Positions 57,937 through 58,124 of a stretch of DNA of 63,171 nt are shown one piece after another. The position numbers and the translations under genes are program-made. The notes under the pieces were generated by a model. It was not told the DNA's origin and ran no database searches. It saw only the letters and a program-made list of their open reading frames with translations. Numbering within the stretch: the stretch's first letter is position 1; each line of letters opens with the position of its first letter. This DNA is from Acidimicrobiia bacterium (GTDB lineage Bacteria > Actinomycetota > Acidimicrobiia > Spongiisociales > UBA5794): NCBI GenBank assembly GCA_030599515.1, contig JAUVNV010000001.1:1-63171 (forward strand), given 5' to 3'.

Positions 57937-58124
57937 AGTAGCGGAGTAGCCCAGAGGTGGAAAGTGGAAAGTGGAAAGTAGAAAGTAGAAAGTAGAAAGT
58001 AGAAAGTAGAAAGGCAAGGGCCGCAAGCAAGAATACGGACCTCGGACTACGGGATACGGGATACGGGCCCCGCTACGGACTAGCGAATACCGAGTACGGA
58101 GTACCGACTACGGACTACGGACTA
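57937..58124. repeat. Tract O: 2 octamers (AGTAGCGG AGTAGCCC), a 4-nt linker AGAG (57953-57956), then 24 heptamers in one register (GTGGAAA x3, GTAGAAA x5, ..., TACGGGA x2, ..., CGGACTA/CCGACTA x5)
   Basis: The heptad block is 57957-58124, which is 168 bp or 24 x 7. I verified it unit by unit. Confidence 0.92.

Follow-up and report, generated by a model that had tools for sequence, protein, structure and literature searches.

The tract between nucS and a convergent sigma-factor gene is probably a non-coding patchwork of heptanucleotide microsatellites, lodged between the stop-proximal hairpins of the two genes. The patchwork appears to be driven by slippage, tolerated in the terminator zone and occasionally copied between spacers. 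Whole units of 7 nt are gained and lost among strains; replication slippage is the presumed cause.

Organization of the nucS-sigma tract

The window is the whole stretch of DNA that was analysed (63,171 nt; G+C content, 63.8%). Tracts are named after their approximate position in kb. Table 1 includes the features of the 58k tract, its relatives in the window and heptad arrays found in distant Acidimicrobiia.

Table 1. Features of the 58k tract, related tracts of the window and heptad arrays of distant Acidimicrobiia. Positions preceded by a locus name refer to that locus, all others to the window.
Location	Strand	Feature	Remarks and basis
57260..57919	+	nucS (EndoMS/NucS mismatch endonuclease)	Left flank; stop TGA 57917-57919; ORF listing, Pfam NucS_N and NucS_C on identical protein
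57920..57936	+	Stop-proximal GC hairpin CGGCTGC-TCC-GCAGCCG	7-bp stem, triloop; RNA folds
57932..57956	+	Octamer mini-array (AGCCGAGT AGCGGAGT AGCC...) and AGAG linker	TRF period 8, 2.5 copies
57957..58012	+	(GTGGAAA)x3 then (GTAGAAA)x5	GTA-first on nucS sense strand
58013..58033	+	GGCAAGG GCCGCAA GCAAGAA: contracted GCNNCAA heptad array and conserved mosaic core	
58034..58068	+	TACGGAC CTCGGAC TACGGGA TACGGGA TACGGGC	TAC anchor, phase 0
58069..58073	.	CCCGC, 5-nt register break	TAC phase mapping; comparison with 53k paralogue
58074..58125	-	(TACSGAS)x7.4	TAC anchor at phase 5; TRF periods 7 and 21
58126..58142	-	Stop-proximal GC hairpin ACCGGCC-GAA-GGCCGGT	Touches sigma stop codon; RNA folds
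58142..59401	-	Sigma-70 family gene	Convergent with nucS; Pfam Sigma70 regions 1.2, 2, 3, 4
53409..53541	+	Inverted paralogue of the 58k tract	Between convergent Pyridox_ox_2 and luciferase-like oxidoreductase genes
12117..12199	-	Third mosaic member: (AGTCSCC)x4 and (ACCGGAT)x3	Around related core CTCTTGCTGGCTGC
2859..2922	+	Related tract: (AGTAGAA)x3.3 and inverted (CTTTCTA)x2.1	Long hairpin
L085 7363-7412		GTAATAC array	
L088 1074-1150		GAGTCGC array	
L096 4054-4103		CAGCTTT array	
L106 6486-6522		GAATTGC array	
L145 10896-10929		CCGACTT array	

The original prediction had read this spacer as two octamers and a linker followed by exactly 24 heptamers, bracketed by GC hairpins. The letters of positions 57937-58124 are exactly as it gave them (AGTAGCGG AGTAGCCC AGAG, then the 24 heptamers). 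The heptamers are present in the sequence, but the total of 24 x 7 = 168 nt hinges on an end placed at 58124, and the last array reaches 58125. Both hairpins (57920-57936 and 58126-58142) are found in MFE and centroid folds of both strands, and the flanking products were correctly named, NucS (+) and a sigma-70 family protein (-) being recognized by Pfam. The kinship proposed between its octamers and an octamer tract elsewhere is borne out by an 80% match to the octamer array 10799-10860 (repeat family D3).

The octamer mini-array begins within the 3' arm of the left hairpin. Read on the minus strand, the last array (58074..58125) is (GTAGTCC/GTACTCS)n and is thus GTA-first on the sense strand of the sigma gene. 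The coordinates of the latter are those of its maximal ORF; the true start probably lies further in. Small ORFs spanning the array are artefacts of repeat composition.

Self-match over the 168 nt is 0.73 at lag 7, 0.65 at its harmonic (lag 14) and 0.20-0.28 at the other lags tested. By block, the period-7 value is 0.98 (GTRGAAA), 0.93 (TACGGGA) and only 0.46 (58013-58047). Sub-arrays 57960-58013, 58048-58067 and 58073-58125 were reported separately by TRF.

When both strands were folded, the bracketing hairpins alone were robust and the arrays were unpaired. A structured RNA formed by the 58k arrays was rejected on these folds; the fold of the 53k paralogue has a z-score of -0.46. Both GC hairpins lack the T tract of a canonical intrinsic terminator, but may still terminate transcription without one. 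No promoter or terminator consensus was detected in 57000-59500, and an Rfam scan of the whole window at gathering scores found two tRNAs only, the tract matching no family.

Register of the heptads

The unit types had been described as keeping an unbroken register that no indel had interrupted. This description fails. Relative to 57957, TAC anchors are in phase 0 at 58034, 58048, 58055 and 58062 (four anchors) and in phase 5 from 58074 to 58123 (seven anchors). A 5-nt CCCGC (58069-58073) parts the TACGGGA-type units from the TACSGAS-type units. The homologous parse is TACGGAC CTCGGAC TACGGGA TACGGGA TACGGGC [CCCGC] TACGGAC TAGCGAA TACCGAG TACGGAG TACCGAC TACGGAC TACGGAC TAC. The units initially written CCCGCTA, CGGACTA and so on are the TACGGAC unit rotated by 2 bases, a notation that masks the break. 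The same break is present in the 53k paralogue, where CCCGC reads GCGGGG on the other strand. For unrelated unit types (GTAGAAA and TACGGGA), a common register cannot be defined because any rotation may be picked.

Variation among strains

Two strains (L162 and L163) are represented by metagenome contigs that were retrieved by exact-protein look-ups and cover 51.8-58.0k of the window. Global alignment over 6.2 kb gave identities to the window of 99.1% for L162 and 99.6% for L163 (30 and 19 substitutions). Only three indels were aligned, of 7, 35 and 14 nt; all lie within heptad tracts and none elsewhere. Copy number varies by whole-unit gains and losses only. The 7-nt indel is in the 53k tract. 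The other two are in the 58k tract: the 35-nt indel reflects a GTGGAAA/GTAGAAA block of 8 units in the window versus 3 in L162, and the 14-nt indel two extra units, GCTGCAA GCTACAA, in the core of L162. The block has at least 9 GTRGAAA units in L163, at least 6 of them GTAGAAA (5 in the window), although both are short-read contigs that end in the 58k array (L162 at 6219, L163 at 6196), so that some copy numbers may be affected by assembly. The arrays themselves are no assembly artefact, since three independent assemblies, as well as related species, contain arrays.

Local duplication followed by drift, as originally proposed, is supported by adjacent units that are one substitution apart and by the whole-unit indels of the strains. 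Very recent expansion had been offered as one reason for the regular period, and expansion and contraction are indeed ongoing between these near-identical strains. Selection on phase had been offered as the other. It is unnecessary: slippage in a tandem array gives unit multiples by itself, and SNP density is not lowered. Substitutions reach 1.4-1.6% in the tract and 0.4-0.6% at third-codon positions; since tract density is not below that of third-codon positions, there is no sign of purifying selection.

Conservation among species

One of the nearest species (L082; NucS identity, 92%) is collinear with 46.7-63.2k of the window at about 80% nucleotide identity. Its left hairpin, GGCTGC-TTC-GCAGCC, has the same position and a nearly unchanged sequence. 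Its right hairpin matches the 58126..58142 hairpin in position and differs from it in its stem. The spacer between nucS and the sigma gene is 59 nt long in L082, with only (AGTACTC)x3.5, versus 222 nt in the window. In L002 (91%) and L083 (85%), gene order is the same, the bracketing hairpins are retained and the spacer contains no array. Absence or lack of relationship of the array in relatives had been named in advance among the conditions that would refute the prediction; the array is absent from L002 and L083, and the unit found in L082 is unrelated. The hairpins and the permissive site are conserved between species; the arrays are not.

Selection on a phase across the full 168 nt, as might serve a phased structure or a reading frame, is opposed by a tract that is missing or unrelated in sister species, by a spacer length that differs by 163 nt between the window and L082, which is not a multiple of 7, by the 5-nt break at 58069-58073 and by the lack of sequence constraint. 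That all strain-level indels are multiples of 7 would fit such a phase, but slippage without selection also gives multiples of 7, and the reading is hardly credible. The 7-nt rhythm is a mechanical by-product of slippage, not a selected phase.

In distant Acidimicrobiia (NucS identity, 67-77%), unrelated heptads lie at most 250 nt downstream of nucS (Table 1), those of L085, L088 and L096 in the same spacer; in L088, inverted arrays make a 17-bp stem. This repeated independent colonization points to a permissive site downstream of nucS.

Two other sites of L082 were examined. At 13765-13840, the orthologue of the 61.3k spacer, inverted octamer arrays (AGTAGATC)x3.5 and (GATCTACT)x2.6 form a near-perfect stem of 27 bp (z = -10.4); the spacer contains (GTACTGA)x4.6 and a GC hairpin in the window, and a plain hairpin in L002. 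At 5998-6052, the 53k site, (CGGTAGT)x3.4 and the core are found at a junction from which the Pyridox_ox_2 gene (window 52710-53483; kept in L002) is missing. This suggests that the gene was lost by a deletion that had one end in the (CGGTAGT)x3.4 array or was mediated by it.

Related tracts of the window

Judging by its alignments, the 58k tract is one copy of a mosaic element that is dispersed in the window, and did not arise purely locally; the original prediction had missed this. Between the reverse complement of 57915-58145 and 53405-53545, 71 nt match at 79% over the non-repetitive middle; local alignment of the two tracts gives z = 29. The 53k copy reads, in order, hairpin, (GTAGTCS)x3, phase break, GTATCCT, core, (TTGTAGC)x3 and (TTTCTAC)x2. 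Both copies contain a TTC-loop hairpin, a GTAGTCS array, the GCGGGG/CCCGC phase break, GTATCC units, the string GTAGTCCGAGGTCC, the core TTCTTGCTKGCGGC and a terminal TTTCTAC array. Their main difference is whole-unit copy number; for example, the GCNNCAA array in the core of the 58k tract is expanded as (TTGTAGC)x3 in its paralogue. The best match of the 12.1k tract is the orthologue of the 53k tract in L082 (z = 16), and a CTTGTC(TTTCTAC)2 module is common to the 2.9k, 53k and 58k tracts. Given the kinship of the 53k, 58k and 12.1k tracts, GGCAAGG GCCGCAA GCAAGAA is therefore taken to be an inherited module and not a set of drifted local heptads. The exact mosaic core, searched in all 163 loci, was matched by the strain contigs only.

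At 2850-2932, between the UPF0047 gene and the one that follows, (AGTAGAA)x3.3 and (CTTTCTA)x2.1 flank a GC hairpin and make one long stem with it (-38 kcal/mol, z = -6.7).

Alternatively, the tract could belong to a family of small non-autonomous mobile or mosaic elements, akin to BIME/REP, BOX or MITE. A dedicated enzyme would insert them beside terminator hairpins, and the heptads would be internal modules that vary. The inverted paralogy of the 53k and 58k tracts extends over the non-repeat core and the phase break, as expected of such an element, but gene conversion between existing arrays would yield the same pattern. A related core recurs in the 12.1k tract and in the L082 orthologue of the 53k tract, yet only three core-bearing copies are found in 63 kb and most arrays have no core. 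Hairpin-plus-array modules recur at 32098 and 61391 (48 nt, 88%) and stop codons of genes have been replaced by insertions; neither terminal inverted repeats nor target-site duplications are evident, and no transposase or RAYT gene is found among the ten ORFs scanned with Pfam, which include ORFs from unannotated gaps. An element of this kind is considered quite unlikely.

Heptad arrays across the window

About 14 intergenic period-7 tracts are found in the window, all at gene ends. Heptad arrays occupy all seven usable (non-overlapping) convergent spacers and no divergent spacer. Perfect arrays of at least 3 copies number 8 at period 7 and 0 at periods 4-6 and 8-12. First-order Markov simulation of the window produced no such period-7 array, versus the 8 observed, and period 7 is far beyond chance. 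The relatives, which also bear NucS, have 9 perfect heptamer arrays in 160 loci (1.61 Mb); the window is about 23-fold denser.

Most unit families have a common GTA/TAC core (GTAGAAA, GTAGTCS, GTATCCS, GTACTGA/GTACTCA and the octamers AGTAGCGG). The frequency of GTA is 56 per kb in tracts versus 6 per kb elsewhere (about 9-fold enrichment). In nearly all non-palindromic arrays, the GTA-first strand is directed toward the 3' end of the adjacent gene.

In seven genes (2448-2870, 7461-10808, 21355-23928, 32139 (-), 52708-53442, 53527 (-) and 60441-61364), the stop codon falls within an array. The last few residues of their products are encoded by the array, and a change in copy number would alter the C-terminal tail. 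Heptads with TAG or TGA give a stop codon in all three frames within 21 nt, which probably allows arrays to abut or overlap the ends of ORFs.

Individual arrays differ in their composition. At 10799-10915, the tract C of the original prediction, (GCGGAGTM)x6.8 octamers containing the stop of a gene of 1115 aa are followed by an 11-nt linker and (CCGACTA)x7.1 perfect heptads, which are the reverse complement of array 23908-23961 (92-97%). A hairpin GCCGCC-TCC-GGCGGC followed by GTAC-type heptads is found in two convergent spacers, 32093-32150 and 61338-61400 (48 nt, 88% complementary). At 32114, the array switches from GTACTGA to GTACTCA, which gives a 13-bp stem (z = -6.4). Degenerate GTAC-type heptads (21003-21048) come directly after a tRNA gene (20904-20987) and just before a convergent minus-strand gene. 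At the junction of two minus-strand genes (41993-42042), (GGCTGTT)x4.6 and (CTCCTTCA)x2.5 have no GTA core; these repeats may be partly coding. The repeat at 3595-3643 (GAGGGCGAA) lies within a coding region and has a period of 9/18, a multiple of three, unlike the intergenic heptads.

Origin and possible role of the arrays

Under the preferred explanation, replication slippage would add and remove 7-nt units. Mutant units would be re-amplified, so that the register would be inherited automatically. Ectopic recombination or template switching would now and then carry a copy of a whole module into another spacer; such copying is proposed because the tracts are paralogous. The arrays would persist in an inter-terminator zone that is nearly free of constraint, where indel loops would not be corrected by NucS-type mismatch repair. 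NucS does not repair indels in vivo (PMC7015689). Relatives have the same NucS background, and NucS therefore cannot explain the burst of arrays. The function of the arrays would be at most weak, for example that of a spacer or 3'-UTR filler.

Several observations stand against plain slippage. It gives no account of the expansion of period 7 alone, of the GTA/TAC core found in almost all unit families here and in L082, of the GTA-first strand being directed toward the 3' end of the neighbouring gene, or of a 23-fold density over NucS-bearing relatives.

The heptads might be putative multivalent binding sites for a protein that reads the (A)GUA/GTA core at a 7-nt spacing on transcript 3' ends or on DNA. 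By analogy with what has been proposed for TAACTGA repeats, such sites could act in termination, in 3'-end stability or in the insulation of convergent genes. The 9-fold enrichment of GTA in tracts and its orientation toward gene 3' ends at nearly all non-palindromic arrays are consistent with binding, as are the single-stranded state of the arrays in predicted folds and their presence in every usable convergent spacer. The latter is offset by the same spacers being devoid of arrays in L002 and L083 and containing other units in L082. The core is retained across differing unit families and in L082, but shared descent of the units through mosaic dispersal would explain it, and heptads in the same spacer of distant Acidimicrobiia have no GTA core. 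Against binding, near-identical strains differ in copy number (3 to at least 9) and substitutions are not constrained. Binding sites of this type are considered unlikely.

It is also rather improbable that GTA-core heptads constitute a lineage-specific cis-element system, in which a putative protein or enzyme with a 7-nt step would read or write (GTANNNN)n at gene 3' ends. If true, this system would explain both the expansion restricted to period 7 and the GTA-first orientation. The mosaic tracts would then be dispersed platforms for 3'-end processing, termination between convergent genes or genome architecture.

Comparison with known repeats

The microsatellite explanation agrees with the features of heptanucleotide long SSRs. 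Such SSRs are head-to-tail copies of a 5-11 nt unit in arrays longer than expected by chance, as are the heptad arrays here (TRF; self-match 0.73-0.98); whole-unit copy number is polymorphic among strains, and the arrays are mainly non-coding with a fast turnover between species. As cited in PMC4679880 and PMC4692102, Mrazek 2007 found heptanucleotides to be the commonest long-SSR class in many bacteria and attributed them to polymerase slippage; in the same accounts, long-SSR abundance is sporadic and lineage-specific, with Actinobacteria among the richest genomes. The tracts resemble prokaryotic heptanucleotide LSSRs (Mrazek et al. 2007) in their tandem 7-nt units, intergenic location and whole-unit copy-number change, but differ in having many unit families with a GTA core and arrays joined into dispersed mosaic tracts.

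Xanthomonas GGGAATC arrays lie near ORF 3' ends, vary in length and sequence at the same gene pair among close relatives and include some inverted pairs (PMC4692102). Like these and the Nostoc GGGGAYT arrays, the present ones are near the 3' end of the upstream ORF and some are paired in inverted orientation (PMC4692102). Xanthomonas and Nostoc units are G-rich, form G-quadruplexes and include one dominant unit per genome, whereas several families that are not G4-prone are found here. Cyanobacterial STRR and the TAACTGA repeats of Beggiatoaceae and Bacteroidetes (PMC4679880) are also genome-wide intergenic heptamers with a patchy phylogenetic distribution and a putative function, and GTACTGA is one base from TAACTGA. 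However, TAACTGA is mostly located just upstream of start codons in one orientation, whereas the arrays here occupy convergent spacers and the 3' ends of genes. The host phylum is different, and so are the units, which are GTAGAAA, GTAGTCS, TACGGGA, GTACTGA etc. here, versus CCCCAGT, TTGGTCA, CAACAGT and TAACTGA in the STRR and TAACTGA repeats. Chloroflexus aurantiacus, with its (GATAGRA)n, is likewise a single genome that carries dozens of heptamer-derived satellites; these all belong to one family of units, and neither mosaics nor hairpins are described around them (PMC6749651).

Unit length and spacing ruled out CRISPR, iterons, SARP heptamer boxes and MIRU. Escherichia coli BIME/REP, pneumococcal BOX and mycobacterial MIRU-VNTR are dispersed intergenic mosaics located at gene 3' ends, associated with hairpins and made of variable modules. 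The present tracts are likewise dispersed 3'-end elements with variable modules and hairpins. BIME/REP, BOX and MIRU-VNTR modules are 20-100 nt long versus 7 nt here. Units of 7 nt, occasionally 8, also separate the tracts from MIRU-VNTR (about 40-100 bp). The hallmarks of REP and BIME are a conserved, imperfectly palindromic unit dispersed in many mosaic copies and an associated RAYT (Y1 transposase) gene. None of the ten ORFs scanned encodes a RAYT. GC hairpins with TYC loops recur beside arrays and the core is common to three mosaic copies, in a 63-kb window that is too small for a REP/BIME census.

A literature search on intergenic tandem repeats found no report for Acidimicrobiia, and a 2026 preprint on Actinomycetota repeats mentions neither heptamers nor Acidimicrobiia. 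The tract is an ordinary kind of bacterial microsatellite (STRR-like), set apart locally by its GTA core, its mosaic dispersal and its bracketing hairpins.

Significance

The tract reveals no new mechanism. It is a clean natural example of whole-unit-only indels where NucS-type mismatch repair leaves indels uncorrected. The arrays break short-read assemblies, L162 and L163 both stopping inside the 58k array, and constitute natural VNTR markers by which strains can be typed in metagenomes. An uncultured lineage of Acidimicrobiia has undergone a burst of heptanucleotide microsatellites that fill its terminator zones and even supply seven stop codons, which adds one more phylum to the recurring and unexplained preference of bacteria for 7-nt units.
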